In this document: positions 2,041 through 54,551 of the stretch, in pieces
Layout of the letters: each line of letters opens with the position of its first letter
Numbering within the stretch: position 1 is the first letter of the stretch
Assembly: GCA_965223855.1 (NCBI GenBank)
Contig: CBDCXM010000009.1
Span: forward strand, 704,001-768,000
Length of the DNA stretch: 64,000 nt
Source: Candidatus Multivoradales bacterium
GTDB taxonomy: Bacteria; Acidobacteriota; Thermoanaerobaculia; Multivoradales; JAHEKO01
Reading direction: 5' to 3'
Translations under genes and position numbers: made by a program
Notes under the pieces: generated by a model
Seen by the model: the letters and a program-made list of their open reading frames with translations, nothing else
Database searches by the model: none
Told to the model about the DNA's origin: nothing

Positions 2041-2064
2041 GCCCAGCTTCAAGAAGTCCTTTCC

Positions 2065-2097
2065 CGGCCGGCCCGCAAGGGCCGGCCGTTCTCTTTT
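2065..2097 (+). terminator. Intrinsic terminator
   Basis: CGGCCGGCCC-GCAA-GGGCCGGCCG perfect 10-bp stem with GNRA loop, followed by TTCTCTTTT. Confidence 0.85.
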
Positions 2098-2137
2098 CCC
2101 CTCCTTCCACCCGGGGTGGAGGCGTGCAACAACGCTA

Positions 2138-2310
2138 GGTCCGCGCCGGCCATTCGCGCTGAGAGCCGAGGGGGCTCGAACCGAGGCCCGAAAGCCTCGG
2201 CGACAGATCGCAGGCCGTCGGCCGAAGGTGAGAGAGCGCGCGTCGACGAGAGTCCTACCGAGTACGCGCGACGTCCCCCTCGGGCTCAGCGCGAATGGCC
2301 GGGGCGGACC
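2138..2310 (+). repeat. Repeat family A, copy 1 (conserved core inside a ~36-bp stem)
   Basis: Arms GGTCCGCGCCGGCCATTCGCGCTGAGAGCCGAGGGGG / CCCCCTCGGGCTCAGCGCGAATGGCCGGGGCGGACC; core matches copies at 10336, 10522 and 11113. Confidence 0.85.
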
Positions 2311-23341: not shown

Positions 23342-24031
23342 ATGAAACTCTCGGTCGCCATCCCCGTCTTCAACGAAGAGCGGACGCTCGAAGAGCTCGT
23401 CGGTCGCGTCCTCGCGACGCCGCACGACAAGGAGATCGTGCTGGTCAACGACGGTTCGAGCGACGGCTCGGCGGCGATCATCGACCGGCTGGCCGCCGAG
23501 CACCCCAACGTCCAGGCGTTCCACCACGACCGCAATCGCGGCAAGGGGGCGGCACTCGCCACCGCGTTCTCGAAGGTCAGCGGCGACGTTGTCGTCATTC
23601 AGGACGCCGACCTCGAGTACGACCCCGGTGACTACGACGCATTGCTCGAGCCGATCGTCAAGGCGAAGGCCGACGTCGTCTACGGCAGCCGCTTCCTCGG
23701 CGGGCGCTACAGCAGGGTGCACCTCTTCTGGCACTTCGTCGGCAACCGTTTCCTCACGACCCTGTCGAACGTCTTCACCAACCTCAATCTCAGCGACATG
23801 GAGACCTGCTACAAGGTCTTCCGGCGCGAGATCGCTCAACAGCTCGACATCCGGTCGAAGAGTTTCGCCGTCGAGCCGGAGATCACCGCCAAGGTGGCAC
23901 GGCTGAAGGCGAGGGTCTACGAGGTGCCGATCAGCTACTCGGGGCGCGACTACGGCGAGGGCAAGAAGATCGGGCCCAAGGACGCGGTGATCGCGGTGTT
24001 CGCGATCCTGCGCTGGGGCCTCTTCCGGTGA
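23342..24031 (+). CDS. GT2 glycosyltransferase (DPM1-like polyprenol-phosphate glycosyltransferase)
   Basis: IPVFNEE, VNDGSSDG, RGKGAAL, QDADLEYDP, YGSRF, DMETCYK. Confidence 0.92.
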   Translation: MKLSVAIPVFNEERTLEELVGRVLATPHDKEIVLVNDGSSDGSAAIIDRLAAEHPNVQAFHHDRNRGKGAALATAFSKVSGDVVVIQDADLEYDPGDYDALLEPIVKAKADVVYGSRFLGGRYSRVHLFWHFVGNRFLTTLSNVFTNLNLSDMETCYKVFRREIAQQLDIRSKSFAVEPEITAKVARLKARVYEVPISYSGRDYGEGKKIGPKDAVIAVFAILRWGLFR

Positions 24032-26691
24032 TCGGATCCCAGCGGTTCGGCCGGACGGGCCGGGCTCTCCTGGCGTTGCTGATCGCCGGCTGCGGCGCTC
24101 CTTCCGATGACCTCGGCCGTACGCGCATCGCCGCGCGGCTGATCACGGAGGCGTCACCCAGCCTCGCGGCGCGCGACCCCGGCGAGCTTTTCGACACCGC
24201 CACCTCCGTCGACTGGCGGTTCTCGCCCGAGATCGCGTCTCCGTGGAAGCTGTCGGACCCCGCGATCCCCGGCGAACTCAAGCCGGGCCGGCTGCAGTTC
24301 GACTGCGCCGTCTCGCCGTGCCGCCTCGAGGCGCAGGTCGATCTCGAGGCGCGCGAGATCGACGCCCTCGAGATCTCGCTCTCCGGCGCCAACAAGAGCA
24401 GCGCTCGCCTCCGCTGGGCGACCGACGGTGGACCCCTCGAGGAGGACCGGGTGCTGGTCGAACGGCTGCCGGCAGGGCGAGACAAGCTCGTACGCTTCGA
24501 CGTTGCCCGCCACCCCCAATGGCGCGGCCGCATTACGGCACTGTCGCTCGAGCCGACGAGGGTCGCCGATCAGAGGGTGTGGATCCAGCAGATCCGCGGT
24601 CTGCGCTACGCCCTCGACGGGGCGGACTCCGCCACCTTTGCCGACGCCTCCTGGTCGGTGCTCGTCGGTGACGAGGCGCGACCCTCACGACTGGCGATCC
24701 CGGGAAGGGCCTTCTCGTGGTCGATCGAGGTGCCCCCCGGCGGCCGGCTCCGCTTCGGCACCGCGGTTCCGCAGACCTGGTCCGAGCCCCTGACGTTCCA
24801 GGTCGCAGCCGTCTCCGGGGGCAGCGAGGTCGAAGTCTTCGAAGCGGCCCGGCAACCGGGGGCGGGGTGGGCCGAACACGAAGTCGATCTTTCACCGTTC
24901 GCCGGCGGCGAGCTCGAGCTGACCTTCGCGGCGGAGGGCTCCGGAGCGCCTCCGATCGCTGGCTTCGCCGCCTGGTCCGGCCCCGAGATCCACGTCGCCG
25001 ACCGCGAGGAGCGACCGCACGTCGTCCTGGTCTCCGTCGATACCCTGCGCGCCGACCATCTGTCGCTCTACGGCTATCACCGGCCGACGACCCCGAATCT
25101 CGACCGTTTCGTCGCCGAGCGCGGGGTGTGGTTTCGCAACACCGTCACCTCGGCCCCCTGGACGCTCCCGGCTCACGTCTCGATGCTGACGGGCATCGAC
25201 TCGCTCGCCCACGGCGTCAATCATCAGAGCCCGATGCCGGAGGCGCTGGTGACGGCGGCGCACCTCTTCCGCGCCGCCGGTTACCGCACCGTGGCCTATA
25301 CGGGTGGAGGCTGGCTCACCGATCGCTACGGCTTCGACCGCGCCTTCGATCGCTTCCACTCGTGGCCTCACGGCCGGCCGCGCGACAGCGAGCTCGCGAC
25401 CAGCATCGATCTGTTGCTCGAAACGTTCTACGAGGCGACGACACCGGTTTTCGCCTTCCTTCACACCTTCGAAGTCCACAGCCCTCACGACCGCCGCGAA
25501 CCGTTCCGGGAGGACTCTCCGTGGCCGGAGGGGACCCGGTTCTTCGACGCCTCGATCGAGACTCGCCGCGAAGCGGGCTACGCCGTCGAGAAGAAGCTCA
25601 TGCTCGGGACCCGCCCCGAGGACGCACGCCGGGTGGAGACCGAAGCCGACTGGCGACAGGCTCGCGCCGCCTACGACAACGGCATCGTCCACATGGACGC
25701 AGAGCTCGGGAGGCTGCTGACGGCGCTCGACACCTTCGGTCCGAACGCAGTCGCCGTCACCTCGGATCACGGCGAGGCGTTCGGCGAGCACGGACTCGCG
25801 TCGCACGGTTATCTCTACGACCACAACGTCCTCGTGCCGCTCGTCCTGGCACCACCGAACGGGGCCCGGGCGGGTGAGGGGCTCCCCGGCCGGGAGATCG
25901 AGCAGCAGGTGCGCGTCGTCGATCTGCTGCCGACGCTGCTCGACTACGCCGGGCTCCAGCCGCCGGCCGGTATCGACGGTCGCTCGCTCGCGACCCTGGT
26001 CGCCAACGGGCGCGACGACTCGCTGCCGCGCATCGCCACCACCTACGCCACGTCGAGCAACCTCGGCCTGGCACTGCGGACGGCCAACCGGATGAAGTAC
26101 GTCTTCAACAACTCGCCCTGGCCGCCGATCGCCGGCCAGCAGTCGCTCTTCGACCTGCGCGCCGACCCGGGCGAGCTCGACGACCTCTCGATCGGAGCCG
26201 ACGACGAGCTCGAGCGGATGCGCAGCCTCACCCGCAGCGCACAGACGACCCGTTCCGGAGTCGCGGTGCTGCGGCTCGCCAACGACGGTTCGTCCCCGCT
26301 TTCCGGAACCCTCGCCGGCCGCTGCCTGCAGCCGTTGAGAGTTACCTCCACCGAGGCCGGGGCGGGGGAGCTGCGCTGGCTCGGCACCCACGCCACCTTC
26401 GAGCTGCCCGCCGGGCGCTCGATGCCGCTCTTCTTCGAGGCTCCGAGCCAACCGTGCGTCACGATCACCCTCGAGCAGGGCGGCCGCACGTTCGAGTGGT
26501 CGATCGACGATCCCGATCAGCCGGCTGCCGGTCGTGCCCTGGGCGCCGACGGCCTCGTGGCGATCGATGCGGAGTCGGCGCTCGGCACCGGGCTGTGGTG
26601 GACACCTCCGTCCGCGCGCCTCGTCGATCTCGACCCGACGACCGACCCGGCGCTGCGAGCGGAACTCGAGGCGCTCGGCTACCTCAACTGA
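24028..26691 (+). CDS. Sulfatase-like (alkaline phosphatase superfamily) lipoprotein
   Basis: Lipobox IAGC, SVDTLRADH, WTLPAH, SDHGE, H-G, C-terminal LEALGYLN. Confidence 0.85.
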   Translation: MIGSQRFGRTGRALLALLIAGCGAPSDDLGRTRIAARLITEASPSLAARDPGELFDTATSVDWRFSPEIASPWKLSDPAIPGELKPGRLQFDCAVSPCRLEAQVDLEAREIDALEISLSGANKSSARLRWATDGGPLEEDRVLVERLPAGRDKLVRFDVARHPQWRGRITALSLEPTRVADQRVWIQQIRGLRYALDGADSATFADASWSVLVGDEARPSRLAIPGRAFSWSIEVPPGGRLRFGTAVPQTWSEPLTFQVAAVSGGSEVEVFEAARQPGAGWAEHEVDLSPFAGGELELTFAAEGSGAPPIAGFAAWSGPEIHVADREERPHVVLVSVDTLRADHLSLYGYHRPTTPNLDRFVAERGVWFRNTVTSAPWTLPAHVSMLTGIDSLAHGVNHQSPMPEALVTAAHLFRAAGYRTVAYTGGGWLTDRYGFDRAFDRFHSWPHGRPRDSELATSIDLLLETFYEATTPVFAFLHTFEVHSPHDRREPFREDSPWPEGTRFFDASIETRREAGYAVEKKLMLGTRPEDARRVETEADWRQARAAYDNGIVHMDAELGRLLTALDTFGPNAVAVTSDHGEAFGEHGLASHGYLYDHNVLVPLVLAPPNGARAGEGLPGREIEQQVRVVDLLPTLLDYAGLQPPAGIDGRSLATLVANGRDDSLPRIATTYATSSNLGLALRTANRMKYVFNNSPWPPIAGQQSLFDLRADPGELDDLSIGADDELERMRSLTRSAQTTRSGVAVLRLANDGSSPLSGTLAGRCLQPLRVTSTEAGAGELRWLGTHATFELPAGRSMPLFFEAPSQPCVTITLEQGGRTFEWSIDDPDQPAAGRALGADGLVAIDAESALGTGLWWTPPSARLVDLDPTTDPALRAELEALGYLN

Positions 26692-26709: not shown

Positions 26710-28197
26710 CTACTGCGACCGGTCCCGCCGCGCCGGGGTGGTGACGAGCTGCGCCGGTTCGATCTTGCGCGCCTGGCCGAGAGCGATCGTGATCGCGTCA
26801 GCCGCGGGCGGACTCCTCTCGAGCTCTCGCCTTCGCCCGGCCTGGATGTCCACACCGGGCCGCGCCAGCATCGCCCAGGCGCGAATCGAGTACGGCGCGA
26901 GGACCGCGATCTGGCGATAGCGGTCGGGCACCGCCGCCCGCACCACGGAAGGATAGGGCCCCGCCTCGATGCGCGTTCCGGGCTCGGCCGCCGCGAGCTC
27001 AGGGCCGAGGGCGGAGAGGAACGTGGCCGATTCCGCCCCGGCGCGCCGGAGCTCGACCGTTCCCGCCCATTGCGGTGCGCCGATCAGCGCCCGGCCGACC
27101 AGCAACCCGACCGCCGCCACCAGGACGGCTGAGCGCAGGGGTGACTCCTGTCTGTGGGTAAGGGCGATCCTGGCGAGCGCCGCCAGAGCCAGGGCCAGCG
27201 GCGCGATGCCGGCATAGGCGTACCACGGGCTGAACCTGCCGGCGCTCGAGAGCAGCAGGGCAAGGGCCACGCCCCACCCGGAGGCGAGGAGCAGAAGACG
27301 GCGCCCACCCTCGCTCCCGCCTGCCAGCGACAGCGCAGCGGCCGCCGCCGTTGCAAGTGCCGCCCAGTGCCACCACGGTACGGCGTTCACCGACAGGAGC
27401 GCTTCGCACAGCTTGCGCACGTGCCCGGCCACGAGATCGGGATTCCAGCCGCTCGTCTTGTGGCCGCCGAGGCCGCCGAGCACCCACCAGCGCAGTCCTA
27501 CGTAGAGCCCCGCCGCGATCGCCGGTGCCGTGGCGAGCCGGAGGGCACGGCCGATGCGGCCTCGACTCGACAGCCGCTCCCGATCTTCCAGCAGACCGAC
27601 ACCAACGGCGACGACCGGCGCAATCAGACCGACTTCTTTCGCCAGCATCGCACCGAGCGCCAGGAGTCCTGCCCGGTAGCCACTGCTCGAGGCGTCGGCT
27701 CGCGAGAGAACACTCACCATCCACAGGAGCAGTGTCGCCGACAGCAGGTCCGGACGACGGGCGAGATAGGGCAGCACGGACCCCTGGGCCGGATGGAGCA
27801 CGAAGACCGTCGTCGCCAACGCCGCCGCCCACGGGGCGCCCGGCAGCCATCGCCGGACGATCCGGTAGAGCGCCAGTGCAGCGAGCGCCAGAAGGACCGC
27901 TCCGACGAGCGCGTTGGAGCGCGCCGTGCCGCCGAGCAGAGCACGGTCGAGCGCCACGCTGGCGGTCGTCAGCGGCCGGTAGAACTCGCCCGGATAGAAG
28001 CCGGGCATCAGCCGCCCGGCGGCGAGATCGATCAGATCGCTCCAGGAGGAGACGGCGGAGGTCAGCAGGATCGGATAGGTGTCCCAACCGAGATGACCGA
28101 CCTCTGCCAGCAGGTCGACCCAGAAGATCGCCGCCAGCGCCACGGCCGTGAACGCCACTCCGGCGCACAGGGTGCGGACGTTGCGCGACCCGCTCAC
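26710..28197 (-). CDS. Polytopic membrane protein, GT-C-like glycosyltransferase
   Basis: WDTYP, FYRPL, LHP, RPDL, AKE motifs; many TMs. Confidence 0.65.
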   Translation of the reverse strand: MSGSRNVRTLCAGVAFTAVALAAIFWVDLLAEVGHLGWDTYPILLTSAVSSWSDLIDLAAGRLMPGFYPGEFYRPLTTASVALDRALLGGTARSNALVGAVLLALAALALYRIVRRWLPGAPWAAALATTVFVLHPAQGSVLPYLARRPDLLSATLLLWMVSVLSRADASSSGYRAGLLALGAMLAKEVGLIAPVVAVGVGLLEDRERLSSRGRIGRALRLATAPAIAAGLYVGLRWWVLGGLGGHKTSGWNPDLVAGHVRKLCEALLSVNAVPWWHWAALATAAAAALSLAGGSEGGRRLLLLASGWGVALALLLSSAGRFSPWYAYAGIAPLALALAALARIALTHRQESPLRSAVLVAAVGLLVGRALIGAPQWAGTVELRRAGAESATFLSALGPELAAAEPGTRIEAGPYPSVVRAAVPDRYRQIAVLAPYSIRAWAMLARPGVDIQAGRRRELERSPPAADAITIALGQARKIEPAQLVTTPARRDRSQ

Positions 28198-29564
28198 AGG
28201 TAGCCGAGCGCCTCGAGCCGCTCCCGAGCCTCCTCGTCGAGCGGCTCCGGCTCGCTTCCCGGCTCCAGATCGAGCGCCTCCAGCAACGCGTCGAGTCTTG
28301 CCGCGAGCTCCGCGACGATCTCCGGGTGCTGCGCGGCCAGGTCGTGCTCCTCATCCGGGTCACGTTCGAAATCGAAGAGCCAGCGACGTCCCTGCACCCG
28401 GTCTTCGACCAGCTTGAGGCGTCGCTCGGCGTCGAGCCAGTAGTGGAGCGAGCGCTCGGAGCGCCGCGTCTCGCCATAGACGCTCGGTACACGAACCCTG
28501 CCGCCTTCGAGCGCCGCGGCAAGACTGGTGCCGTGGAACTCCTCCGGCGCCTCGAGGCCGATGAGATCGAGAATCGTCGGCGCGACGTCGATCAGCCGCA
28601 CCGGATCATCGATCCGGCGCCCACCCTCGGCGCCCGCCGGCAGGCGAATCATCAACGGCACCCGTACCAGCGCATTGGTGACCGACTTCGAATGACCCCA
28701 GCGGCCCTTCTCGTCGAACTCCTCTCCGTGGTCGCCGACGAGGACGACGAGGTAGCGATCGAGATCGACCCGCTCGGCAGCGGCGGCGAAGAAGCGCCGG
28801 ATCGAGTCGTCGGTCGCGCGGAGCTTGCGGTCGTAGTCGCGCTTCGTGCTCGCGACCGGATCCGGCAACTCCTCGTCGCCGAACATCTCGCCGTAGCCCG
28901 CCGGGGGGCGGTAGATCGGCGGCGCGCCCGCCTTGTCGAAGTGAGGGTCGAAGAGATGCACCCACAGCAGATGGCGCTCGCTCTCGAAACGCTCCAGCTC
29001 GGCCAGCGCCACTTCGAAGGCGCAGGCGGCCGTGCCCCACATGCAGCTTGTTTCGTCGAAGCGGTCGAACCCCTGGGAGAAGCCCTGGCGTTCGATGAGG
29101 TGACCGTTGGTCGAGATGCCGGCGGTCTCGTAGCCCGCCTTCTGCAAGGCCTCCGTCAAGGTCGGGTGGCTCTCCGAGAAGCGCTCCACCTCGACCCCGG
29201 CGACGCCGCCCCGGCGGCCACGTGGCGCGGGCCTGACGCCGTCGTGAACCCCGAGCGCGGGGGTGTCGAGCCCCGAGAAGAGCGACAGCATCGACGGCAG
29301 CGTCCAGGAGCTCTGTGCGAGGGCGGCGTCGAAGACCACCGACTCGCGCGCCAGCTCCTCGAGGAACGGCGTGGTGTCGCGCTCGTACCCGAAGAGGGAG
29401 AAGTGGTCGGCACGCGTCGTGTCGAGCGTCACGAGAAGGATCGGAGCTCCGTCGGCACCGGGTGCCGCTGCGGCGACCGAGCCCTCCTCCACCCGTCGGT
29501 CGCAGCCCGCCGTCACGACGAGCAGCATCGCCGCCGGAACTCGCCACATCCTCATGGACGGCAT
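28194..29564 (-). CDS. Sulfatase-like lipoprotein
   Basis: TAGC lipobox, TLDTTRADH, WTLPS, FDPH, GDHGEEF, C-terminal LEALGYL; start may be 29555. Confidence 0.85.
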   Translation of the reverse strand: MPSMRMWRVPAAMLLVVTAGCDRRVEEGSVAAAAPGADGAPILLVTLDTTRADHFSLFGYERDTTPFLEELARESVVFDAALAQSSWTLPSMLSLFSGLDTPALGVHDGVRPAPRGRRGGVAGVEVERFSESHPTLTEALQKAGYETAGISTNGHLIERQGFSQGFDRFDETSCMWGTAACAFEVALAELERFESERHLLWVHLFDPHFDKAGAPPIYRPPAGYGEMFGDEELPDPVASTKRDYDRKLRATDDSIRRFFAAAAERVDLDRYLVVLVGDHGEEFDEKGRWGHSKSVTNALVRVPLMIRLPAGAEGGRRIDDPVRLIDVAPTILDLIGLEAPEEFHGTSLAAALEGGRVRVPSVYGETRRSERSLHYWLDAERRLKLVEDRVQGRRWLFDFERDPDEEHDLAAQHPEIVAELAARLDALLEALDLEPGSEPEPLDEEARERLEALGYL

Positions 29565-29610
29565 CCTGTCAGATCCTCCACCTGTCGCCGGCCGGGGCAG
29601 ATCGACGTGC

Positions 29611-29648
29611 AAACGAAAACGGGTAGCCCGTGAGGACTACCCGTTTCG
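29611..29648 (-). terminator. Strong intrinsic terminator for the 29682-30308 gene
   Basis: Minus strand AAACGGGTAGTCC-TCAC-GGGCTACCCGTTT followed by TCGTTT. Confidence 0.85.
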
Positions 29649-29681: not shown

Positions 29682-30308
29682 TTAGCGGGTCGCGACGTAG
29701 CTGTCGAGAGCGTAGGTGCCGCTGGTCGTGGTGTCGGGGCCCTGAGCGGCTCCGAGACGGACGACATCGACGACCGTACCGAAGTTCGGAATGTCGAGCT
29801 TCTCGTACTGCACCGTGTCGCCCTTGATGAGGCGGAAGAAACCGTCGTCCGCACCGGCACCGCTCGCACGGCCCCACTCGTAGCCGACGCGGCCACGGTT
29901 GGTCGCCGGGTTGATCGTGAACTTGCCGGCCCAGCGGAAGGCGCCGTTCTCGCGCTTCACGAAGGCGACGATCTTGAACTCGTTGTTCTGGCGAACCAGG
30001 TTGACCTTGATCACGTTGTCGCCGGGCTGACGGGACATGTGAACCGTGTGATTGGTGAACTCGGCCATCGTGAGGTCGTCGGCATCGATACGGAACTCGA
30101 TGTTGTGGGTGACCTCACTGTTGTGAGCCGTGTTCTCTGCCACGTAGGTCGTGTTGGTACCGCTGTTCATCTGCATCTCGAGACCGAAGCTTCCCTCGAT
30201 CGCTGCAGCGGCGGTCACCGCCAGGGTGTTGGCGCCCGCATGGGCTACGCCGGCCGTCGTGAGCACTCCCAACCCGATCACGGCTACCGAAAGCAGGACT
30301 TTACGCAT
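29682..30308 (-). CDS. Secreted beta-rich protein (ConA/LamG-like sandwich), probably abundant
   Basis: Strong RBS GAAAGGGAGAG, signal peptide ending AHA, own terminator, Asn/Thr-rich beta strands. Confidence 0.85.
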   Translation of the reverse strand: MRKVLLSVAVIGLGVLTTAGVAHAGANTLAVTAAAAIEGSFGLEMQMNSGTNTTYVAENTAHNSEVTHNIEFRIDADDLTMAEFTNHTVHMSRQPGDNVIKVNLVRQNNEFKIVAFVKRENGAFRWAGKFTINPATNRGRVGYEWGRASGAGADDGFFRLIKGDTVQYEKLDIPNFGTVVDVVRLGAAQGPDTTTSGTYALDSYVATR

Positions 30309-30516
30309 CTTGAACTCTCCCTTTCTTGGGCCTATCTCGAGGCTCACGCCCCAGTGGTCTCTTAACCGCTCAGGCACCGTAGCAAAGGAACCAGGCGAGG
30401 GCAAGTGACTTTTTCAACGGACGTCAGAGGTTAGCACAGGCTTCGAGGGGGTCGTTGGGCACCCTTCCGCCGCCGCGATAGGCTCTCCCGGTCCAGCGCG
30501 CCGTCAGGGCCTTCCG

Positions 30517-33243
30517 ATGCAGACTCCGCATTCCAAGCTCCTGTCCGCCGCGAAACCGGCTCGCGGCGCCGCAACGCCCGTCCGTCTCGCCGCCGCCGTG
30601 CTGTTCGGCCTGCTGAGCGCGGCCTGCGACGTCTCGGACGGCGTCCCGCCCTCCGAGAGGTTTCTAGCCGAGCGCATGGCCGCGGCTCCTCCCTCCTCCC
30701 GCGTCGCCAGAGAGGCGGTCCTCACGCCGGTGCCTCTGCTTTCGTGGAACTTCGGCGTCGAGGCCGATCGACGCCCCTGGAAGGTGATCGGAGACGACAG
30801 CGTCGAGGAGACCGCGGGGGGCTTTCTTATCGAGTCGCGGTCCGGCGAGGGCCAGGGGCGGGTCCGCTTCCACCTGCCGCTGACGGTGCCGGCGACCCGG
30901 ATCGACACGATCACCTTCGCCTTCACCGGCGAGCAGACGCCGATGATGCGCCTCGACTGGGCGCGTGCCGACGAGCCCTGCCGCCTCGGACAGCTTCGAA
31001 CCCGGCAGCAGCTCACCGAGCCCGGGGAGCCGGCCGTCGTCCGCTTTTTCGTCGCCGACGATCCGGACTGGGACGATCGCGTCGAGCGCATCTGCCTCGC
31101 GATCCTCTCGTACGCCGTGCCCGCCGAGCTGCAGCGGGCGGCGCTGATTCAGGAGCGCCACCGCCCCGGCGAGCACGCGGGCGACGTCTCTTTCGCCCGC
31201 GTCCAGGTCGCCGGCGAAACACGCCCCGGTTGGGTCGGCTCCACGGCGACGACCCCGTCCTGGGAGGTCGAGGTGCCCGCGACGGGCAGGCTCGAGTTCG
31301 GCTTCGGCACCACCGCCCACTCTGCCGGCTCGGTCGAGGTCCGGGTGCGGGACCGCTCCGGCGAGCAGGAGGTGTTCGATGCCGACGTCGGATCGGCCGA
31401 CGGCCTGGCCGCCAACCGGTGGCACGATCGAACCCTCGACCTCGGTCGCTGGGCCGGCGGTTCGGTCGAGCTGCTCTTCGCCACCAGCAGGCAACAGGAC
31501 GCCCGGGGCCTGCTGTTGTGGAGCGAGCCGAAGATCTGGGTCGAGGCCGAGCGGTCACGACCCGACCTGCCGAACCTGGTGGTGGTGTCGATCGACACCC
31601 TGCGCCCCGACCACCTGCCGTTCTACGGCTACCCGACCGACACCGCGCCGAATCTCACCCGGTGGGCGAACGGCGCGGTGGTGTTCGAGAACGCCGTCTC
31701 TTCCTCTCCCTGGACCCTTCCGGCACATCTGTCGATGTTCACCGGCCTCGACGCTTTGCGTCACGGAGTCAACCATCGCGCCTCCGTCCCGGCGAGCCTC
31801 GATCTGCTCGCTCCGCGGCTCCAGGCGCTCGGATACGAGACCCTCGCGGTGACCGGCGGAGGCTACATGCACGCCGATCTCGGTCTGGACCGCGGTTTCG
31901 ATCGCTACCGCTCCTGGGCCGACCGCAAGGACTCCGCCCGCGAGATCGACAGCACGGTGGCGACCGCGCTGCGCTGGCTCGAGGAGAAGCCCGACCGGCC
32001 GATCTTCCTCCTCGTTCACACCTATGAGGTGCACCACCCGTTCCGCCAGCGGGAGCCGTACTTCAGTCGCTTCAGCGACATCGACCTCGCGGACACCGCG
32101 TCGCTCTCCTACCTGTCGAACGGCAAGACCGTCGGCCCGGACACCCTGCTGGCGAAATGGCCGACGATCCGGATGGAGGCGGGAGCCGCGAGAACCGACC
32201 TCCCCCGGGATCTCGTGCCCGCCTGGATCGCCGCCTACGACAGCGGCATCGCCCACGCGGACGATCGGCTCGGGCCGCTCTTCTCGAAGCTCGACGACGA
32301 CCTCTGGTCGGCCCGCACGGCCTCGGTGCTCATCTCGGACCACGGAGAGGCGCTCGGCGAGCACGGGCTCGCCAGCCACATGTACCTCGACGACTTCAAC
32401 GCCCTCGTTCCGCTGGTCGTCAAGCCGCCAGGCGCATCGGGCCGCGGCCACCGGGTGCCGGACCAGGTGCGCCTGGTCGATCTATTCCCGACGCTGCTGG
32501 AGCTCTCCGGTGCCGCGATACCCGACGGCCTCGACGGCGCGTCGCTGCTGCCGCTCGTTCGCGGCGAGCCGGACCCGGTCTCCGAACGACCCGCCTGGAC
32601 CTACGCCGCCTTCTCGCGCCGCGGCATGGCGCTGCGCCTCGACAACCGGTGGAAGTACCGCTTCAACAACAGCGCAGCACAGGAGCTCCTCGGTCGGGAG
32701 CAGCTCCACGATCTCGTCGCCGACCCGGACGAGACCGTCGATCTGGCTCCTTCGAGCGCCGAGACACCACGCCTGCGACGCCGCATGCTGCGCTATCTCA
32801 TGGAGCACGGCACCGGGGTCCGGTTGCGGTTGAGCAACCCCACCGAAGAGCCGATCGCGCTCGTCTTCGTCGGCCCCGATCTCCAGTTCGTGACGCTCAA
32901 GGCGGTACCGCAGGAGGGCGCCAGTCTCCATTGGTCCCATCACCTCCTGCGGGTCGATCTGGAGCCGGGGGGCCGACTCGCGCTGTTCGTCGAGCGCCTG
33001 CTGGAGGTCCGCCTCACCGCACGCATCCGTGGGGGGCCGGACGATCGCCGCCAGTGGGCGCTGGGGGACGACCAGCTGGGAGACGCGCTCGTCTGGGGCG
33101 GCGACGGCGTCGCCTGGTCATCCGATGTGGGATCGGGGGCGCCGATCCTCGAAATCGACCGCTTCGGCCCCAGCGCCGCCGCCGAGTCGGGAGATCAGAG
33201 CGTCCTTCAGCAACAGCTCGAAGCGCTGGGGTACCTCAATTGA
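30517..33243 (+). CDS. Sulfatase-like lipoprotein (paralog of 24028-26691)
   Basis: SAAC lipobox, SIDTLRPDH, WTLPAH, HTYEVH, SDHGE, C-terminal LEALGYLN. Confidence 0.85.
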   Translation: MQTPHSKLLSAAKPARGAATPVRLAAAVLFGLLSAACDVSDGVPPSERFLAERMAAAPPSSRVAREAVLTPVPLLSWNFGVEADRRPWKVIGDDSVEETAGGFLIESRSGEGQGRVRFHLPLTVPATRIDTITFAFTGEQTPMMRLDWARADEPCRLGQLRTRQQLTEPGEPAVVRFFVADDPDWDDRVERICLAILSYAVPAELQRAALIQERHRPGEHAGDVSFARVQVAGETRPGWVGSTATTPSWEVEVPATGRLEFGFGTTAHSAGSVEVRVRDRSGEQEVFDADVGSADGLAANRWHDRTLDLGRWAGGSVELLFATSRQQDARGLLLWSEPKIWVEAERSRPDLPNLVVVSIDTLRPDHLPFYGYPTDTAPNLTRWANGAVVFENAVSSSPWTLPAHLSMFTGLDALRHGVNHRASVPASLDLLAPRLQALGYETLAVTGGGYMHADLGLDRGFDRYRSWADRKDSAREIDSTVATALRWLEEKPDRPIFLLVHTYEVHHPFRQREPYFSRFSDIDLADTASLSYLSNGKTVGPDTLLAKWPTIRMEAGAARTDLPRDLVPAWIAAYDSGIAHADDRLGPLFSKLDDDLWSARTASVLISDHGEALGEHGLASHMYLDDFNALVPLVVKPPGASGRGHRVPDQVRLVDLFPTLLELSGAAIPDGLDGASLLPLVRGEPDPVSERPAWTYAAFSRRGMALRLDNRWKYRFNNSAAQELLGREQLHDLVADPDETVDLAPSSAETPRLRRRMLRYLMEHGTGVRLRLSNPTEEPIALVFVGPDLQFVTLKAVPQEGASLHWSHHLLRVDLEPGGRLALFVERLLEVRLTARIRGGPDDRRQWALGDDQLGDALVWGGDGVAWSSDVGSGAPILEIDRFGPSAAAESGDQSVLQQQLEALGYLN

Positions 33244-33248
33244 GCGGC

Positions 33249-33710
33249 ATGCCCTCTTCGCTCCGGCAGCGGCTCCTCCTGGGCACGGTGGCTCTCGCGG
33301 TAGGGGTCGGCGGCTACCGCACGGTGCGCGGATTCGAGCCGCGTTCGAGCGAGCCGCCCCTGAGCGAGCCCAGGGAGCTGCACTGGATCGCCCGCTACGA
33401 GCGCGCCGCGCCGGCGCTGCGTCACGATGAGCGCGCCCTCTTCCTTCATTCGCGTGAGAGCAAGGGCAAGACCCGCTTCTTCCGAGCGCAGCTGATCCTC
33501 ACGCCGACGCGGCTCGTACCGCGGTCGGACGTCACGCGGGTGCTGAACGAGGAGTGGCCGGAGATGCCGATCCTTCTCGATTTCCGCCGTCAGGACGAGT
33601 TCCGCAACGTCGCCGCGCTGCTGCGCAGTCGCGCGAAGGCGCTGCGGCTCGAGGTCGAGGTCGAGCACCTCGATCGCGGCCTGCTGCTGATGCGACGAGC
33701 GGCGCCGTGA
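33249..33710 (+). CDS. Small membrane-anchored hypothetical protein
   Basis: N-terminal TM, FFRAQLILTP motif; GTGA overlap with the next gene. Confidence 0.65.
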   Translation: MPSSLRQRLLLGTVALAVGVGGYRTVRGFEPRSSEPPLSEPRELHWIARYERAAPALRHDERALFLHSRESKGKTRFFRAQLILTPTRLVPRSDVTRVLNEEWPEMPILLDFRRQDEFRNVAALLRSRAKALRLEVEVEHLDRGLLLMRRAAP

Positions 33711-35077
33711 CGATCGTCCTGCCGCTCTTGATCGCCCTCTCGGGGGTTGCCGCGGTCGCCTGGTGCACGCGACCGCCGGATCGGGTGCCGCTCGCCGTAC
33801 TGTGGGGCCCGGCGATCGGCTTCGGCTGGATCTCTCTCCTCTTCTACAGCTGGCGACTCGCCGGTGGCGGCTCTTCGTTTTTTCCGTGGGTGCTGCTCGC
33901 CCTGACTCCCTTGCTCCTCTGGTGGTGTACCCGCCGGGCGCCTCTATCGCTACGGGAGCCGCGTCCCCCGACCGCGGCTCCGTCGCTTCTGAGCGGATGC
34001 GTGGCGTTGGTCGCCCTGGTCCTGGCGAGCCTCGAGCTCCACCAGGAGTACCTGCGACTGCCGCTCGGCACCTTCGACGCCAAAGCGATCTGGAACCCTC
34101 ACGCGCTCCTGCTCTACCGCGCGGAGGACGACCTCGCCGCGCGTTTCTCCACTCTCGTCTACGGCCACCCCAGCTACCCGCTGCTGCTGTGCGCCGGGTT
34201 GAGCGCACAGTTCGCCCTGCTCGGCGGCGACAATTTCCTGACTCCGGCGGTGCAGAGCTATCTGTTCACCGTCGTCACCGCCGGCGCGATCGTCGCCGCC
34301 CTCTACTGCCTCGGGGCCGGGCGCTGGGGAGCGTGGGCCGCGGCCCTCTATCTGTTGACGCCGGCGCTTCATCGCTGGGGGGTGTCGCAGTGCGCCGACA
34401 TCCCGCTGTCCTATCTGGTTGTCGTCGCCGCGACGAGTCTCGCCCTCTATCTGACCCGCGGCTCCCGCAGCGCCGGCGTCGGAGCGCTCGCCGGCCTCGC
34501 CACCGGCATGCTCCCGTGGACCAAGAACGAGGGCCTGCTCCTCGCCGGCATTCTCGCCCTCTCCTGGATGTTCGTGCGCTGGCGCTTCCTCGCCCCCGCC
34601 GATCGGCCGCGCCTTCGCCCGGTCGCCCTCGGGGTGATTCCCGGCCTCGCGAGCCTCGTTCTCTTCAAGGCTCTGTGGTCGCCGCGCGACGAGCTCGCCG
34701 ACTTCGCCGGCAGCGCGCTGCCGAACATCCTCGACCTCGAGCGCTGGAGAATCGTCACGGCAGCCTTCCGGCAGGAGCTCTCTCCCGTCGGCGGGCTGGC
34801 ACAATGGGGCATCGTCTGGATCATGCTCGTCGGCGTCGCGCTGGCGGTCCGGTCCGCCTGGCGGGGCAACGCCGCGGTTTCCTTCCTCGGGATCGTCAGC
34901 GCGCTCGTTCTCCTCACCTGGTTCGGCGTCTACCTCGGAACGCTCCACGACCCGCAATGGCACCTCGACACGTCCTTCCGCCGGCTGCTGTTGCAACTGC
35001 TCCCGGTTGCGCTCGTCGCCGTCTTCGCCGCAGCGGGCCGCTCCATCGGCTCGCCGACCACCGCCGGGCGCTCATGA
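33707..35077 (+). CDS. GT-C-fold (ArnT/PMT-like) membrane glycosyltransferase
   Basis: FDAKAIW, HPSYPLL, ADIPL, WTKNEG; many TMs. Confidence 0.72.
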   Translation: MTIVLPLLIALSGVAAVAWCTRPPDRVPLAVLWGPAIGFGWISLLFYSWRLAGGGSSFFPWVLLALTPLLLWWCTRRAPLSLREPRPPTAAPSLLSGCVALVALVLASLELHQEYLRLPLGTFDAKAIWNPHALLLYRAEDDLAARFSTLVYGHPSYPLLLCAGLSAQFALLGGDNFLTPAVQSYLFTVVTAGAIVAALYCLGAGRWGAWAAALYLLTPALHRWGVSQCADIPLSYLVVVAATSLALYLTRGSRSAGVGALAGLATGMLPWTKNEGLLLAGILALSWMFVRWRFLAPADRPRLRPVALGVIPGLASLVLFKALWSPRDELADFAGSALPNILDLERWRIVTAAFRQELSPVGGLAQWGIVWIMLVGVALAVRSAWRGNAAVSFLGIVSALVLLTWFGVYLGTLHDPQWHLDTSFRRLLLQLLPVALVAVFAAAGRSIGSPTTAGRS

Positions 35078-36539: not shown

Positions 36540-37820
36540 GTGCACCTACGGCAAGACGTTGCGCACTCCTGATCGCGCTGGCGATCGCCGCGTTGCCGGC
36601 GACCGTCGGAGAGAACCGATGCCGGTCCGCCCGAGCGGGCTGGCAACGCGGCTCGATCCGATCACTTCCGAGTGCTCTTCCGTGCCGGACAACGTCTCCC
36701 CGGCGCCCAACTGCCGATCGCGAGTCTCGGACTGCCGACGAGCGACGGCGACGGCCGTTTCGCCTTCACCGGTCTGCTCGCGGACGGCGACGGCTTCGTC
36801 TGGCGCGACGGCTCGCTGCGATGGCTCAACAGCTCGGCCCCTCCGCCCGCACCGACGGGCGCCGCTCCATCGATGGGGCTCGGAGACGCGGACCAGTTCG
36901 TCTTCAGAACACAGCTGCAGGGAGCGGACACGCTGTGGTCGGGTTCGGGCCCGCTCCTCAGCGCCGGAGATCCGGCGCCCGGGATCGCCGGCGCCACCAT
37001 CGACTTCAACCGGCGCCCGACGATGGCCCCCGACGGCACGGCCTTCTGGCTCTCCGGTTATACCGCCACGGCCACCGGCGCCCTCGGGCGGGCGCTCTAC
37101 GCCAGCCCCGGCACCGACCCGGGCACGATCGTTCCGCTACTGCGCTCCGGAGATCTGGTCGACGGTGTTCCGATCGCCGGCAATCTCGGTCTGGCTCTCG
37201 GTTTCCGCGTGTCCCGCAATCTCGCCCATCTCATCCATGCCATCCGGCTCGCCACCGGCGGTGCAGGCGTCGAAGAGGCGATCTACGTCGACGGAACGAT
37301 CGCCGCGCGTGAGGGGGACAAGGCAGGCCCCGGCGAACACTGGACGCGATTCTTCGAGGTGACGATCAACAACAACGGCGACTACCTCTTCAGCGCCTCG
37401 ACCGATGCCGACGACGACAGCGATCAGGTTCTCGCCCACAACGGCGAGGTGGTCCTGCGAGAGGGCGATCGGGTCGACGGGTTCCTGCTGACTCCGGGCG
37501 CGCGCGTTCTGAGCGTCGATCTCGACGACGACGGGCGAGTCGCCCATCTGTGGCTGACCGACAACTTCGGCCCGGAGCATCTCTTCTTCGCCTGCTCCGT
37601 CGACGAGATTCACCAGTCGGTGCGCCTCTTCTCCGCCGCCCGCAACACCCTGAGCGTGCGCCCGTTCGTGCGCTTCGCCGACATCGCCTTCGGCCCCGCC
37701 CTGTGGCTCGCGACCGGTTCCGATCGGCTGTGGGTGCAGGTCGAGGTCGGCAAGCGCACACCGGACGGCTTCGTCCTGGTGGACGCGATCGTCGAGATCG
37801 ACCTGCCGAGCTGCGACTAG
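36536..37820 (+). CDS. Secreted repeat (propeller-like) protein, paralog; apparent frameshift near 36610
   Basis: Signal peptide MSAPTARRCALLIALAIAALPA from TTG 36536 is in a different frame from the body (36672-37820), which has LLSAGDPAPG, LLRSGD, REGD and INNNG repeats. Confidence 0.65.
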
Positions 37821-39839: not shown

Positions 39840-40430
39840 TTACAACAGCATCACGCCGAGAGCTCGCAGCCGCTCGCGAGTGGCCGGCAGTCGCGACGGT
39901 GCGACCCTCAGCACGCAGCGCACCCGCTCCTCGAAGATCGTCTCGCCGACTTCGATCGCAGGCGGGGTGACGAGTCGCTCGACCGCCCCCCAGGTGGCAT
40001 AGTCGACCGTCAGGCGAAGCTCCTCGTAGCGCCAGCGACGCGCGACCTCGAGCGCGGCCAACGCCTCGCGCACGGCACCGCCGTAGGCACGAACGAGACC
40101 GCCCCTGCCGAGCTTCGTGCCGCCGAACCAGCGCGCGACGACAGCGCTCACGTCCGACACTCCGGCCCCGACCAGCGCCTGGAGAATCGGCGCTCCGGCG
40201 GTGCCGCTCGGCTCCCCGTCGTCGCTCGAGCGCTCCCGTGGCGGGTCACCGAGCCGCCACGCCCAGCAATGATGGGTCGCCGCCGGGTGCTGCTCGCGCC
40301 GGCGATCGAGGTGGGCGCGAGCCTCCTCTTCGCTCCGCACCGGCTCCAGCCAGGCGACGAAGCGCGAGCCGCGATCGACGAGCCCACCCTCGGCCGCGCC
40401 GCCGGCGATCGGGTAGCTGTCGTCAGTCAC
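39840..40430 (-). CDS. yigZ: YigZ/IMPACT family protein
   Basis: SRFVA, ATHHCWA, DDGEPSGTAG, RWFGGTKLGRGGLVRAY. Confidence 0.9.
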   Translation of the reverse strand: MTDDSYPIAGGAAEGGLVDRGSRFVAWLEPVRSEEEARAHLDRRREQHPAATHHCWAWRLGDPPRERSSDDGEPSGTAGAPILQALVGAGVSDVSAVVARWFGGTKLGRGGLVRAYGGAVREALAALEVARRWRYEELRLTVDYATWGAVERLVTPPAIEVGETIFEERVRCVLRVAPSRLPATRERLRALGVMLL

Positions 40431-41547
40431 TCTCGAGGGTGCGGCGGTAGAGCTGCCGGTAGCGCTCGACGATCGCGTCCTCCGAGAATCGCTCGACGGC
40501 GGTCGTCCGCGCCGCCCGGCTGACCGTATCCCAGCGCTCGGCATCGCCGAGCAACGCGAGCGCCGCTTCGGCCATGCCGTCGACATCTCCCACCGGCCGC
40601 AGGAACCCGGTCACCCCCTCCTCGACCACCTCCGGCAGTCCGCCGACCCGGGTGGCGACGACCGGCACGGCGCAAGACATCGCCTCGAGCGCGGCGAGAC
40701 CGAACGACTCGGTCTCCGAAGGCAGCAGGAAGAGGTCGGCACCGACGAGCACCTCTTCGATCGCCTCGGTCGCGCCGACGAAGCTCACCCGGTCGCAGGT
40801 TTCGCTCTGGCGGCAGCGCTGCTCGACCAGCGCCCGGTCGGGGCCGTCACCGACCAGCAGCAGGCGGCAATCGACCTGCTCCACGACGCGCTCGAACACC
40901 CGCAGCACGTCGAGCACCCGCTTGACCGGACGGAAGTTGGAGACGTGCACCAGCAGCCGCTCGCCGTCGCGCGCCCAGCGCCTCGCGCCGGCGCCGACAC
41001 GTGCCGTCTCGTAGCGGTCGGGGTCGATGAAATTGGGGATCACGTCGATCTCCCGCATGGTGGCGAAGTGCTCGACGGTGTCGCGACGCAGCGACTCCGA
41101 CACGGTCGTCACCGTATCGCTCCTCTCGATGCCGTAACGGGTGGTGGCGAGGTAGTTCGGGTCGTTGCCGACGAGCGTGATGTCGGTCCCGTGAAGCGTC
41201 GTCACCACCTTGAGGTGGTTGCCGCCGACGATGTCGCGCGCCAGCACCGCCGACACCGCGTTGGGCACCGCGTAGTGCACGTGGAGCAGATCGAGCTCCT
41301 GGTAGCGCGCCACCTCGGCCATCTTGGTCGCCAGGGCGAGGCTGTAGGGCGGATACTCGAACAGCGGGTAGTGCGGCACCACCACCTCGTGAAAGGCGAG
41401 GTTCGGATCGACCAGCCGCAGGCGCGACGGCATGGCGTAGCTGATGACGTGTACCTCGTCGCCGAGGCGTGCCAGCGCCATCGCCAACTCGGTGGCGACG
41501 ACACCCGAGCCGCCGAGCGTCGGGTAGCAGCTGATGCCGATCTTCAC
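40423..41547 (-). CDS. bshA: N-acetylglucosaminyl-L-malate synthase
   Basis: MKIGISCYPTLGGSGVVATELA, HVHYAVP, TTLHGTDITLVG, SNFRPVKR, ESFGLAALEA. Confidence 0.95.
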   Translation of the reverse strand: MKIGISCYPTLGGSGVVATELAMALARLGDEVHVISYAMPSRLRLVDPNLAFHEVVVPHYPLFEYPPYSLALATKMAEVARYQELDLLHVHYAVPNAVSAVLARDIVGGNHLKVVTTLHGTDITLVGNDPNYLATTRYGIERSDTVTTVSESLRRDTVEHFATMREIDVIPNFIDPDRYETARVGAGARRWARDGERLLVHVSNFRPVKRVLDVLRVFERVVEQVDCRLLLVGDGPDRALVEQRCRQSETCDRVSFVGATEAIEEVLVGADLFLLPSETESFGLAALEAMSCAVPVVATRVGGLPEVVEEGVTGFLRPVGDVDGMAEAALALLGDAERWDTVSRAARTTAVERFSEDAIVERYRQLYRRTLESD

Positions 41548-44659: not shown

Positions 44660-45562
44660 ATGCGAACGTCACTGGCGTCATTCCTTCTCGTCGTCGCACT
44701 GTCGATCTGCAGCGCGGCGACGGCGCAGGACGGCGAGGGGGGCGCGCTCTTCGCCGACGGTTTCGAGAGCGGCAACACCCTCGCCTGGGACAACAGGGTG
44801 CCACCGCTACCCGCGCCGGACGCCTTTCGGATCGTTTCGCTCGAGCTGCGGGATCCGCACGTGTTCGTCGACCTGCCGGTGTTCGGCTGCGTCGACTTCA
44901 CCGACGACCCGCTGCCGGCGGGCCTCGGCCCGTCGTTCAACGACTCTCTGGCGACGGCGATCGACGGCGACGACGACGGCGACGGCTTCCTCGACCTCAG
45001 TCTGATCCTCGCCTTCCGTCCGTTCGACGCGACGGCGAGCGACGAGCGACTCGACGCCGGCTGCGGGCTGTGTACCGACCCCGCCGCGACGACCGTGTGT
45101 GACTGGGACCTCGAGGTCGCGATTCCCCGTACCTCGCCTTACGACGGTCTCGCCGCCGGGACCTGTCTCGAGCCGCTGGCGGGTACCACTTCGGGGTACT
45201 CACCACCGGTGCCGACCACCGTCGCTCCATGCGTCGTCAGCGAGATCTCGCCGGCGCCGCTGCTCGTGCTGGTGATCGACGGTGTGCCGATCGTGCTCGA
45301 GGAGAGCCAGCTCTCCGGCAGCCTCGTCGGCGCGCCGGTCTTCCGCCTCGAGGACGGCCTGGTGCGCGGCTTTCTCAGCGAGGCGGTCGCCGACACGATC
45401 CAGCTCCCCGGCCCTGCCGGGCCGATCACGCTCTCGTCGCTGCTGCCTGGAGGCACCGACAGCTGTGCTCCCGGAAACGACCGGGACCTGCTCGACGGCG
45501 TCTCCGGCTGGTGGTTCTACCTCGAGCAGGACGCCGAGGCGGTCCCCTTCATCGGCGACTGA
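44660..45562 (+). CDS. Secreted acidic Cys-rich protein with N-terminal LFADGFESGNTLAW motif
   Basis: Signal peptide, FxDGFESG motif, DGDDDGDG Ca-binding-like loop, several Cys. Confidence 0.8.
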   Translation: MRTSLASFLLVVALSICSAATAQDGEGGALFADGFESGNTLAWDNRVPPLPAPDAFRIVSLELRDPHVFVDLPVFGCVDFTDDPLPAGLGPSFNDSLATAIDGDDDGDGFLDLSLILAFRPFDATASDERLDAGCGLCTDPAATTVCDWDLEVAIPRTSPYDGLAAGTCLEPLAGTTSGYSPPVPTTVAPCVVSEISPAPLLVLVIDGVPIVLEESQLSGSLVGAPVFRLEDGLVRGFLSEAVADTIQLPGPAGPITLSSLLPGGTDSCAPGNDRDLLDGVSGWWFYLEQDAEAVPFIGD

Positions 45563-52554: not shown

Positions 52555-53262
52555 ACGATCGACGCTGAACGACTGCTGGGTTCGCTGGTCCGCAACGCCC
52601 TCGGGAGACGTGGCAGAAGGCGCGGACGAGGCCGCCGACGGGGCGGCCTCAGCGGGCGCCTCGGGTCCTTGGGCCTCGGCCGCGGAGCCCTCGGCATGGG
52701 AGCTCTCGGCGTCGCCATCGCCGCCTTCGAGCACCTGACCGGTCAGGAAAAGGCGGCCGCACGCCCTTCCGCTGCACCTGCGGCCGCACCTCCCGCCGGC
52801 GGGAACCCGGCCTCGCCGCCCCTGCCACCGTTGCCGGGAGCGCCACCAGCCGGTTCGCCCCCCCTGCCACCGTTGCCCTCGGAGAGCGCAGCGGCCGAGA
52901 CCCGGCCGGCCGAAGCGCTGCTGCTGGTGCGGGCGATGATCGCCGCCGCCTACGCCGACCACCAGCTCGACGAAGCCGAGCGCGGCCGCATCGCGGCGGC
53001 GATCAACGACGCTTCCGAGACCCCCGAGGAGCGCGAGACGCTGCTGGCGGAGCTCGAGCGGCCGCTCGATCTCGACGCCCTTGCCGCCGCGGTCACCGGC
53101 CCCGAGATCGCCGAGCAGGTCTATCTGGCGTCGAAGATGGCGATCGACGTCGATTCCCCCTCCGAGGAGCACTACCTGCGCCGACTGGCGACGAAGCTCG
53201 GGCTCGACGAGTCACGACTCCAGGAGTTGGACCGGGCCCTCGAAGCCGACGAGGAGCCGTGA
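52555..53262 (+). CDS. DUF533/TerB-like protein (true start lacks a canonical codon)
   Basis: LLVRAMIAAAYADH, QVYLAS, E..YL..LA..LGL; the frame extends 5' to (ACG)IDAERLLGSLV after GGAG, while the first canonical start is TTG 52669. Confidence 0.72.
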   Translation, partial: TIDAERLLGSLVRNALGRRGRRRGRGRRRGGLSGRLGSLGLGRGALGMGALGVAIAAFEHLTGQEKAAARPSAAPAAAPPAGGNPASPPLPPLPGAPPAGSPPLPPLPSESAAAETRPAEALLLVRAMIAAAYADHQLDEAERGRIAAAINDASETPEERETLLAELERPLDLDALAAAVTGPEIAEQVYLASKMAIDVDSPSEEHYLRRLATKLGLDESRLQELDRALEADEEP

Positions 53263-54503: not shown

Positions 54504-54551
54504 CACCGGCAGTCGATTCGACCGACGCTGACAGTGCGCTACAGTCCCCGG

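Follow-up and report, generated by a model that had tools for sequence, protein, structure and literature searches.

A secreted protein of 208 residues, P0001, is encoded at positions 29682–30308 (reverse strand) of a 64,000-nucleotide stretch of Candidatus Multivoradales DNA (contig CBDCXM010000009.1; the whole stretch is referred to below as the window). P0001 is the 'body' of a ~200-residue domain, predicted to be a β-sandwich, from which the first hairpin is missing, and that hairpin is found as a 19-residue C-terminal tail on 78 open reading frames (ORFs) of the same genome. P0001 is probably a split docking domain that tethers a set of exo-enzymes to the cell envelope or matrix. The two parts of this reading differ in strength: physical binding of the tail to P0001, as predicted by a model of the complex, is likely, whereas the chances that tethering is its purpose are even. 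Tail and receptor have complementary anatomy, the tail is homologous to the hairpin of the whole domain, the two occur together across genomes, and in some relatives the receptor is fused to S-layer homology (SLH) or dockerin domains. An earlier inspection of the window from its letters alone (the sequence-only reading) had proposed that a strand-less receptor encoded here accepts the FxDGFESG peptides of other secreted proteins. The computational checks suggested with that proposal gave results in its favour.

A domain divided between genes

The P0001 gene runs from an ATG at 30308 to a stop codon at 29682–29684. Residues 1–24 (MRKVLLSVAVIGLGVLTTAGVAHA; 30237–30308, reverse strand) read by eye as a Sec-type signal peptide with predicted cleavage between AHA and G; they align with the signal peptides of 38 stand-alone homologs and are helical, at a predicted local distance difference test score (pLDDT) of ~53, in the AlphaFold2 (AF2) model. 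A Shine–Dalgarno-like GGGAGAG (30315–30321, reverse strand; identified by eye) lies 6 nt upstream of the ATG, and a terminator-like hairpin followed by TTTCGTTTG lies ~50 nt past the stop codon (29619–29631, reverse strand; one site, against a mean of 0.6 in shuffled sequences). The gene described in the sequence-only reading is thus present, with a putative signal peptide, ribosome-binding site and terminator. Pfam and NCBIfam assigned P0001 to no family, and no lyase family of Pfam, PF14099 (Polysacc_lyase) included, matched it even at E ≤ 1. Family scans and the sequence revealed no SLH repeat, dockerin, cohesin, lipobox or membrane helix in the protein.

An exhaustive HMMER scan of 1.84 billion representatives, with a cut-off of E ≤ 1e-3, identified 730 representative clusters related to the P0001 domain; a word-indexed protein search recovered only four close relatives. 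Two classes were distinguished among 154 proteins from the scan. The first comprises ~42 stand-alone proteins of 200–230 residues, in which the domain match begins directly behind the signal peptide. The second comprises long proteins with 1–6 copies of the domain, each preceded by the consensus IFxDGFESGxLSAWSxxxTDGGDLSVTxAAAL, so that the longer domain beginning with FxDGFESG, which the sequence-only reading had described, was recovered among the homologs. The whole domain also occurs as 2–6 tandem internal copies, and the last copy lies within 15 residues of the C-terminus in 58 of 104 multidomain representatives. Weak matches to Pfam PF14099 are found on some of these whole-domain relatives.

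A profile of the whole domain, built from 124 whole copies, spans 204 positions. P0001 covers positions 23–204 (E 8e-32), with the match beginning directly after the signal peptide; the hairpin FxDGFESGxxSxW is absent in cis, placing P0001 in the strand-less subtype represented by the ~42 clusters. Conversely, six-frame ORFs of the genome contain 88 short matches to profile positions 3/4–21/22. The tail (positions 3–22, IFxDGFESGDTSAWSxTVP) and the receptor (positions 23–204) are exact complements, with no overlap and no gap, and the split point, position 22/23, falls in the loop after the first hairpin. The profile bears out the suggestion that P0001 is this domain without its beginning, although the missing piece, described in the sequence-only reading as one strand, is a hairpin of two.

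The genome to which the window belongs (4.52 Mb, 9 contigs, Thermoanaerobaculia-like; G000) contains 78 ORFs that terminate in the tail, 71 of which have a signal-peptide-like start as scored by a crude rule. The 19-residue consensus is [ILV]FxDGFESGDTSAWSxT[VIL]P-COOH. Seven residues (F, D, G, F, E, G and W) never vary among the 78 tails, exactly 12 residues follow GFE in 77, and proline is the final residue in 65. A DNA pattern for the tail and its stop codon matched exactly at 77 sites genome-wide and the reversed control pattern at none; the recurrence is therefore far beyond chance. Near receptor genes of other genomes, tail variants were observed on a protein of G165 (locus L108, contig C1, 12936–13673, reverse strand), which ends in FRNGFETGGSSLWQVTP-COOH, and on a PD40/GEVED protein of G005 (locus L110, contig C62, 11016–12899, forward strand), which ends in LFADGFESGDMTAW; the exact DNA pattern therefore undercounts tails.

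Within the window, both peptides quoted in the sequence-only reading exist. The C-terminal one, IFEDGFESGDTGAWSVTVD (54444–54500, forward strand), forms the last 19 residues of a 414-residue ORF (53259–54503, forward strand) that has a signal-peptide-like start and no Pfam family. In two further proteins of the genome the peptide is N-terminal, directly behind the signal peptide, as in an exported 300-residue protein without a Pfam or NCBIfam family (44660–45562, forward strand), in which the copy LFADGFESGNTLAW occupies 44747–44788 (forward strand). The observation from which a tag system was proposed is real, and its scale was underestimated ~40-fold, with 78 tails rather than 2.

A Pfam family (E ≤ 1e-5) was assigned to 50 of the 78 cargo proteins, leaving 28 with none. 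The assigned cargo includes seven peptidases (S8, M36, M28, M14, two M12B-like and one trypsin-like), a hydrolase resembling glycoside hydrolase families GH39 and GH5, a sulfatase, two GDSL lipases, three GSDH proteins, a cytochrome c peroxidase, eleven FG-GAP and five BNR/sortilin proteins, together with CHRD, LamG_3, DUF11, DUF7933 and β-helix proteins. Judged by these families, the list has the profile of a general exoproteome tag. None of the 78 proteins matched PF18962 (Por_Secre_tail) at E ≤ 1e-5, and none carries a cohesin or dockerin recognized by Pfam. The tails end in AWSxTVP-COOH, with no hydrophobic helix of the kind found in PEP-CTERM/exosortase-type signals, and genome searches with models of the type IX secretion system (T9SS) C-terminal domain and of PEP-CTERM (PF07589) gave no match, the control genomes being equally silent.

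Read-through or frameshifting from the tails into a hidden body was considered and rejected: no further copy of the body was found in six frames and tblastn revealed no paralog, which excludes this route. Apart from P0001, the body is matched in the genome only by one divergent whole domain outside the window (C9:2131011–2131877, reverse strand; locus L107). It lies in a 288-residue ORF that has a signal peptide, the hairpin IFDDDFESGDLSAWS in cis and then a low-complexity tail, and that belongs to no Pfam family.

A genome of the same family, G131, illustrates the undivided state. It contains no exact tails, five DGFESGxxxxW motifs and no strand-less gene, and its seven domain matches lie within ORFs of 219–1329 residues, mostly at the C-terminus. 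A 606-residue ORF of G131 (residues 21–424) aligns with residues 1–411 of the tagged GSDH protein L089 (415 residues) at 46% identity; the alignment spans the tag, after which the G131 protein continues into the domain body. Further G131 pairs are L021 (676 residues) with L077 (506 residues), at 45% identity, and L017 with L062, at 57% identity and with the alignment reaching residue 1061 of 1064. By these alignments, the tag is a cut-down form of the cis domain. The either/or pattern, with the domain in cis or else tag and receptor, recurs within single families.

The predicted complex and the distribution of its parts

The AF2 model of P0001, computed with 39 strand-less homologs, has a pLDDT of 90.9 and shows a concanavalin A (ConA)-like jelly roll. 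Its best structural match is the polysaccharide lyase family 20 (PL20) glucuronan lyase 2zzj (Foldseek E 2.2e-7; VIA Z 15.7, root-mean-square deviation 2.5 Å, 174 aligned residues, 11% identity), followed by PL7, PL14 and PL18 lyases and toxin HCN domains; its structure neighbours in the Atlas are unnamed or 'LamG-like / Polysacc_lyase-like'. In the VIA alignment the P0001 model begins at residue 25, compared with residue 20 or later in the solved chains, an offset that agrees weakly with missing N-terminal strands, its value being limited by entry numbering.

P0001 residues 25–208 were modelled together with the last 32 residues of the 414-residue cargo protein. The ipSAE scores were 0.90, 0.89 and 0.86, against 0.01 for the best of three controls; 58 of 80 solved complexes attain the mark used for this score, as do 2 of 110 mismatched pairs. 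The runs share at least 83% of contacts, with a partner pLDDT of 74–77. In the model the tail forms a hairpin of two β-strands, confidently inserted between receptor strands 202–207 and 55–58, in line with the insertion anticipated in the sequence-only reading. Cargo residues I396–F401 run antiparallel to receptor residues D202–T207, and W409–T412 pair with Y55–E58; F401 contacts receptor residues 31, 42, 43 and 202. On the cargo side the predicted interface consists of residues 392–406 and 409–414. On the receptor side, conservation across the 39 strand-less homologs is higher at the 33 interface residues (2.92 versus 1.93 bits; Mann–Whitney p = 1.7e-8), which include 12 of the 20 most conserved receptor positions.

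The co-occurrence of tails and strand-less receptors was surveyed in a sample of 401 genomes of the phylum and one of 301 genomes of the class. In the phylum sample, exact tails were found in ten genomes, six of which have at least three (77, 67, 41, 15, 12 and 3). All six contain a strand-less homolog behind a signal peptide; among the other 395, one genome (G282) has such a gene, and it has no motif at all. For the class sample, matches that started inside the signal peptide, at model position 12 or before, were counted as strand-less; the receptor type of G276 and G505 was confirmed by sequence, and the strand-less gene sequences of 22 genomes were read. Tails occur in 64 of the 301 genomes, 61 of which have at least three. 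The strand-less gene is present in 52 of these 61 tail-rich genomes, compared with 3 of 240 genomes with no tail or one (G490, G403 and G409); in ~10 of the remainder the domain is present only as a whole or internal copy, and the other 227 gave no match. Such genome-wide pairing of strand-less receptors with tail-rich proteomes had been put forward in the sequence-only reading as a test of the idea. The two closest named relatives (both 'MAG: Thermoanaerobaculia bacterium', metagenome-assembled genomes) have 71 and 29 tails.

Across families of the class sample, tails together with the receptor were found in 0 of 72, 0 of 43, 0 of 27 and 0 of 26 genomes of families f8, f7, f9 and f12, in 35 of 47 of family f11 and in 8 of 8 of family f6. 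In family f4, the 31 genomes of genus g7 have neither tails nor receptor, and two other genera have both. At least two orders of Thermoanaerobaculia have the system. Stand-alone strand-less homologs may also exist in other phyla, as the Atlas neighbours suggest; metagenome relatives of the receptor were limited to three contigs of 1.2–2.1 kb.

Possible roles in tethering or export, and the receptor locus

In many bacteria the ~200-residue domain is whole at the C-terminus of large exported proteins. In the proposed mechanism, P0001 would act as the body, common to all cargo, of a ConA-like (PL20-like) jelly-roll domain divided between genes: cargo proteins would keep the first β-hairpin, and the separate P0001 gene would supply residues 23–204 behind a signal peptide. 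After export, the tail would insert as two antiparallel strands, IFxDGF against the last strand D202–T207 and AWSxTV against Y55–E58, completing the sandwich and coupling each of ~78 unrelated exo-proteins to one receptor. Completion of the fold would itself be the docking reaction by which exo-enzymes are loaded onto the envelope or matrix. An ordinary anchoring domain, C-terminal and in cis, may have undergone fission to give this arrangement; relatives of the same family keep the fused form.

The most likely role of the completed domain is to tether cargo to a glycan of the envelope or matrix, which is proposed because some receptors carry SLH or dockerin modules and because the gene lies among polysaccharide-modifying genes. 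SLH repeats (PF00395) follow the strand-less domain in G276, G505 and G490 (44.8–46.1 bits; cut-off 20.8), and the receptor of G438 has a similar extension that is not called by Pfam. SLH domains bind pyruvylated cell-wall polymers, and the SLH-fused receptor of G276 adjoins genes for a family 1 glycosyltransferase (GT1) and a polysaccharide pyruvyl transferase. The receptor homolog of G409 bears a fused type I dockerin (PF00404, Dockerin_1; 29.4 bits, cut-off 22.9); it is encoded by ORF 1351–2298 (forward strand) of locus L126 (G409:C117:29000–32800), in a genome with almost no canonical tails. The dockerin implies, from its sequence family, a cohesin-bearing partner in this acidobacterial genome. 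Together, the SLH and dockerin fusions point to an anchoring adaptor, as far as domain assignments can tell. P0001 itself would perhaps attach through the sugar-binding face of its jelly roll.

The locus had been described in the sequence-only reading as a glycosyltransferase locus, a description that did not hold: the immediate neighbours of P0001 are three sulfatase-family genes, and a single GT4 gene lies 10 kb away (40423–41547). Downstream of the receptor is a sulfatase-family gene (PF00884, E 2.6e-37; 28194–29612, reverse strand) of a neighbour type conserved across lineages, the same arrangement being found in L027, L028, G165 and G119. A second gene, of 908 residues (30517–33243, forward strand), is divergent from the receptor gene and has counterparts at homologous positions in L027 and L028; a third encodes 1019 residues (23632–26691, forward strand). 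Sulfatase-family genes neighbour the receptor in G000, its close relatives G401 and G402, G165, G119, G276 and G005; a sulfotransferase gene adjoins it in G165 and G176. Genes of the GT1, GT2 and Wzy-like types are found close to the receptor in G176, G005, G119 and G276 (the Wzy-like gene in G176). Nothing was found to support the earlier suggestion that the receptor is glycosylated, whereas the accompanying one, that it is glycan-anchored, is indirectly favoured by the SLH and dockerin fusions and the pyruvyl transferase neighbour in relatives.

The main rival explanation is that P0001 is a periplasmic pilot or chaperone, which would complement the fold of the tail and hand cargo to an outer-membrane translocon, the reconstituted domain serving as an export signal in the way that the T9SS C-terminal domain serves in cis. 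The cargo, with its seven peptidases, glycosidases, lipases, sulfatase and many β-propellers, looks like a collection of substrates for a secretion system, relatives typically carry the whole domain at the C-terminus (58 of 104), and P0001 has a Sec signal peptide only and no anchor. Two proteins, however, carry the tag at the N-terminus, a position more in keeping with a docking peptide than with a C-terminal export signal; SLH and dockerin fusions are anchoring rather than transport modules, and the whole domain is also found in 2–6 tandem internal copies. In the nine neighbourhoods read, no translocon gene is conserved beside the receptor. A pilot role is considered unlikely.

Distinctly improbable is a second alternative, in which the tail is a sorting or processing signal for other machinery (a protease, sortase-like enzyme or transporter) and P0001 an N-terminally shortened lectin or polysaccharide lyase acting alone on the polysaccharide of the locus, the likeness of the tail reflecting descent only. 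The confident apo model, a fold closest to PL20, PL7 and PL14 lyases, the position of the gene among sulfatase-family genes and exceptions to co-occurrence in both directions would all suit it. It is opposed by the exact split at profile position 22/23, by the co-occurrence (52 of 61 versus 3 of 240), by G131 with whole domains and neither tails nor a strand-less gene, and by the complex score (0.89 versus 0.01). The hairpin-facing surface is, moreover, the best-conserved part of proteins that lack the hairpin, and P0001 gave no Pfam lyase match even at E ≤ 1. Almost no weight can be given to the idea that whole C-terminal domains decayed repeatedly and left the tails as inert remnants, with P0001 an unrelated survivor: homologous cargo of G131 does still have the whole domain, but decay would leave ragged ends and drifting sequence, whereas the stop codon stands at an identical position in 77 of 78 tails, seven residues are invariant in all 78, and the same tail length is kept in 64 of 301 genomes of the class.

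Several observations weigh against the split docking domain itself. The complex score may derive from the model's knowledge of the whole domain, and it reports the fit of two halves rather than their meeting and binding in the cell. The apo model is confident (pLDDT 90.9), and the receptor might be stable and functional alone. P0001 carries no attachment module of its own (SLH, dockerin, lipobox or membrane helix), and one receptor gene would have to serve 78 cargo genes. The counts of 52 of 61 and 3 of 240 overstate independence, the sampled genomes being related to one another. Five tail-bearing genomes have no detectable receptor (G526, G554, G542, G522 and G534, with 42, 36, 20, 3 and 3 tails), and a closer query of them was likewise without match; all are metagenome-assembled, in 180–740 contigs and at 91–95% completeness. 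G614 and G618, with three tails each, have internal-domain matches only, and G489 and G634 have only partial or contig-edge receptor matches. Conversely, strand-less homologs occur with few or no canonical tails in G403 (no motifs), G409 (one), G282 (none) and G490 (one exact tail).

Further features of the locus were recorded. The receptor-adjacent sulfatase-family proteins (the three of the window and those of L108, L110, L111 and L112) end in L[RK]ALGY[LVI]x. Sulfatases normally read C/S-x-P-x-R at a site where, by eye, these proteins read W-T-L-P-[SA]-x-L, a replacement that suggests threonine as the nucleophile; the proteins may act as transferases, or as hydrolases on bonds other than sulfate esters. 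Downstream of the sulfatase cluster, two exported-looking proteins without the tail (33458–35077 and 36573–37820, both forward strand) have no family or a weak one (DUF7453, 1e-7). At 54534–56785 (forward strand), two long ORFs overlap in different frames: ORF 54534–55904 encodes a signal peptide and its N-terminal part matches no Pfam family, and the second half of ORF 54413–56785 is an M28 peptidase. On this reading of the frames, a single gene appears to be interrupted by a frameshift near 55.8 kb, whether through a sequencing error or because it is a pseudogene.

Relation to known sorting and docking systems

A split domain that docks many enzymes onto a single receptor would be a mechanism not described before. 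Known tags for proteome-wide sorting consist of a complete module or a membrane anchor, recognized by a dedicated enzyme or a partner fold; LPXTG, PEP-CTERM, the T9SS C-terminal domain and dockerin are examples. The present tag seems to belong to the fold of its receptor, in which case recognition would equal folding. The chances are balanced that this is a natural 'tag and catcher' sorting system, in which ~2% of a proteome carries a 19-residue hairpin that finishes an unfinished secreted jelly roll. In the literature, at the level of listings and abstracts, DGFESG was not found and near-variant strings returned unrelated matches only; at the same level, there was no account of Thermoanaerobaculia sorting or of split-domain strand complementation of this kind.

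A single small gene could stand in for ~78 copies of a 200-residue domain. If the reading is true, it adds a new principle of protein sorting and display in diderm bacteria, explains an abundant unannotated motif of Acidobacteriota secretomes and provides a simple rule for predicting sets of exo-enzymes, and the large unnamed domain family (730 representative clusters) gains a name. The presence of cis and trans forms in one bacterial family makes it a clean system for studying how domains are split between genes. Were binding as tight as in other fold complementations, tail and receptor would also form a new orthogonal, natural peptide–receptor pair for protein engineering.

The closest mechanistic parallel is donor-strand complementation in chaperone–usher pili and strand exchange in type V pili, in which an incomplete β-sandwich is completed in trans by a short strand of another polypeptide. 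Unlike the immunoglobulin (Ig)-like pilins of chaperone–usher systems, which lack the last strand, P0001 is predicted to be a ConA-like jelly roll; the donor is a two-strand hairpin, and the arrangement is hub-and-spoke, with one receptor for ~78 cargo proteins and no polymer. No chaperone or usher gene was found among the receptor neighbours scanned. A similar principle has been engineered in SpyTag/SpyCatcher and split GFP, where a peptide tag completes the β-rich fold of a separate 'catcher'. In contrast to SpyTag/SpyCatcher, the present pair is natural and proteome-wide, and nothing points to a covalent isopeptide bond in it.

PL20 glucuronan lyase (2zzj; Pfam PF14099 and PF21340) shares the jelly-roll fold, according to the model; the P0001 family, however, occurs as tandem or C-terminal modules rather than as enzymes, and P0001 has no Pfam hit at E ≤ 1. 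The T9SS C-terminal domain (Por_Secre_tail) is likewise a conserved C-terminal signal on dozens of diverse exo-enzymes and, as in relatives of the present cargo, a whole β-sandwich in cis at the C-terminus. It is, however, an Ig-like domain of 70–100 residues, whereas the fold considered here is ConA-like and ~200 residues long and has been cut to 19 residues, with the rest supplied in trans; the lineage is Acidobacteriota, and no Por_Secre_tail is found on the 78 cargo proteins. In cellulosomal cohesin–dockerin pairs and SLH scaffoldins, as here, a short module on many enzymes is matched by a common receptor, which is sometimes equipped with SLH repeats (G276, G505 and G490). The two systems are unrelated in sequence and fold, and one receptor homolog (G409) itself carries a dockerin. 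A dockerin is a folded module, whereas the tag described here is the missing part of the receptor fold.

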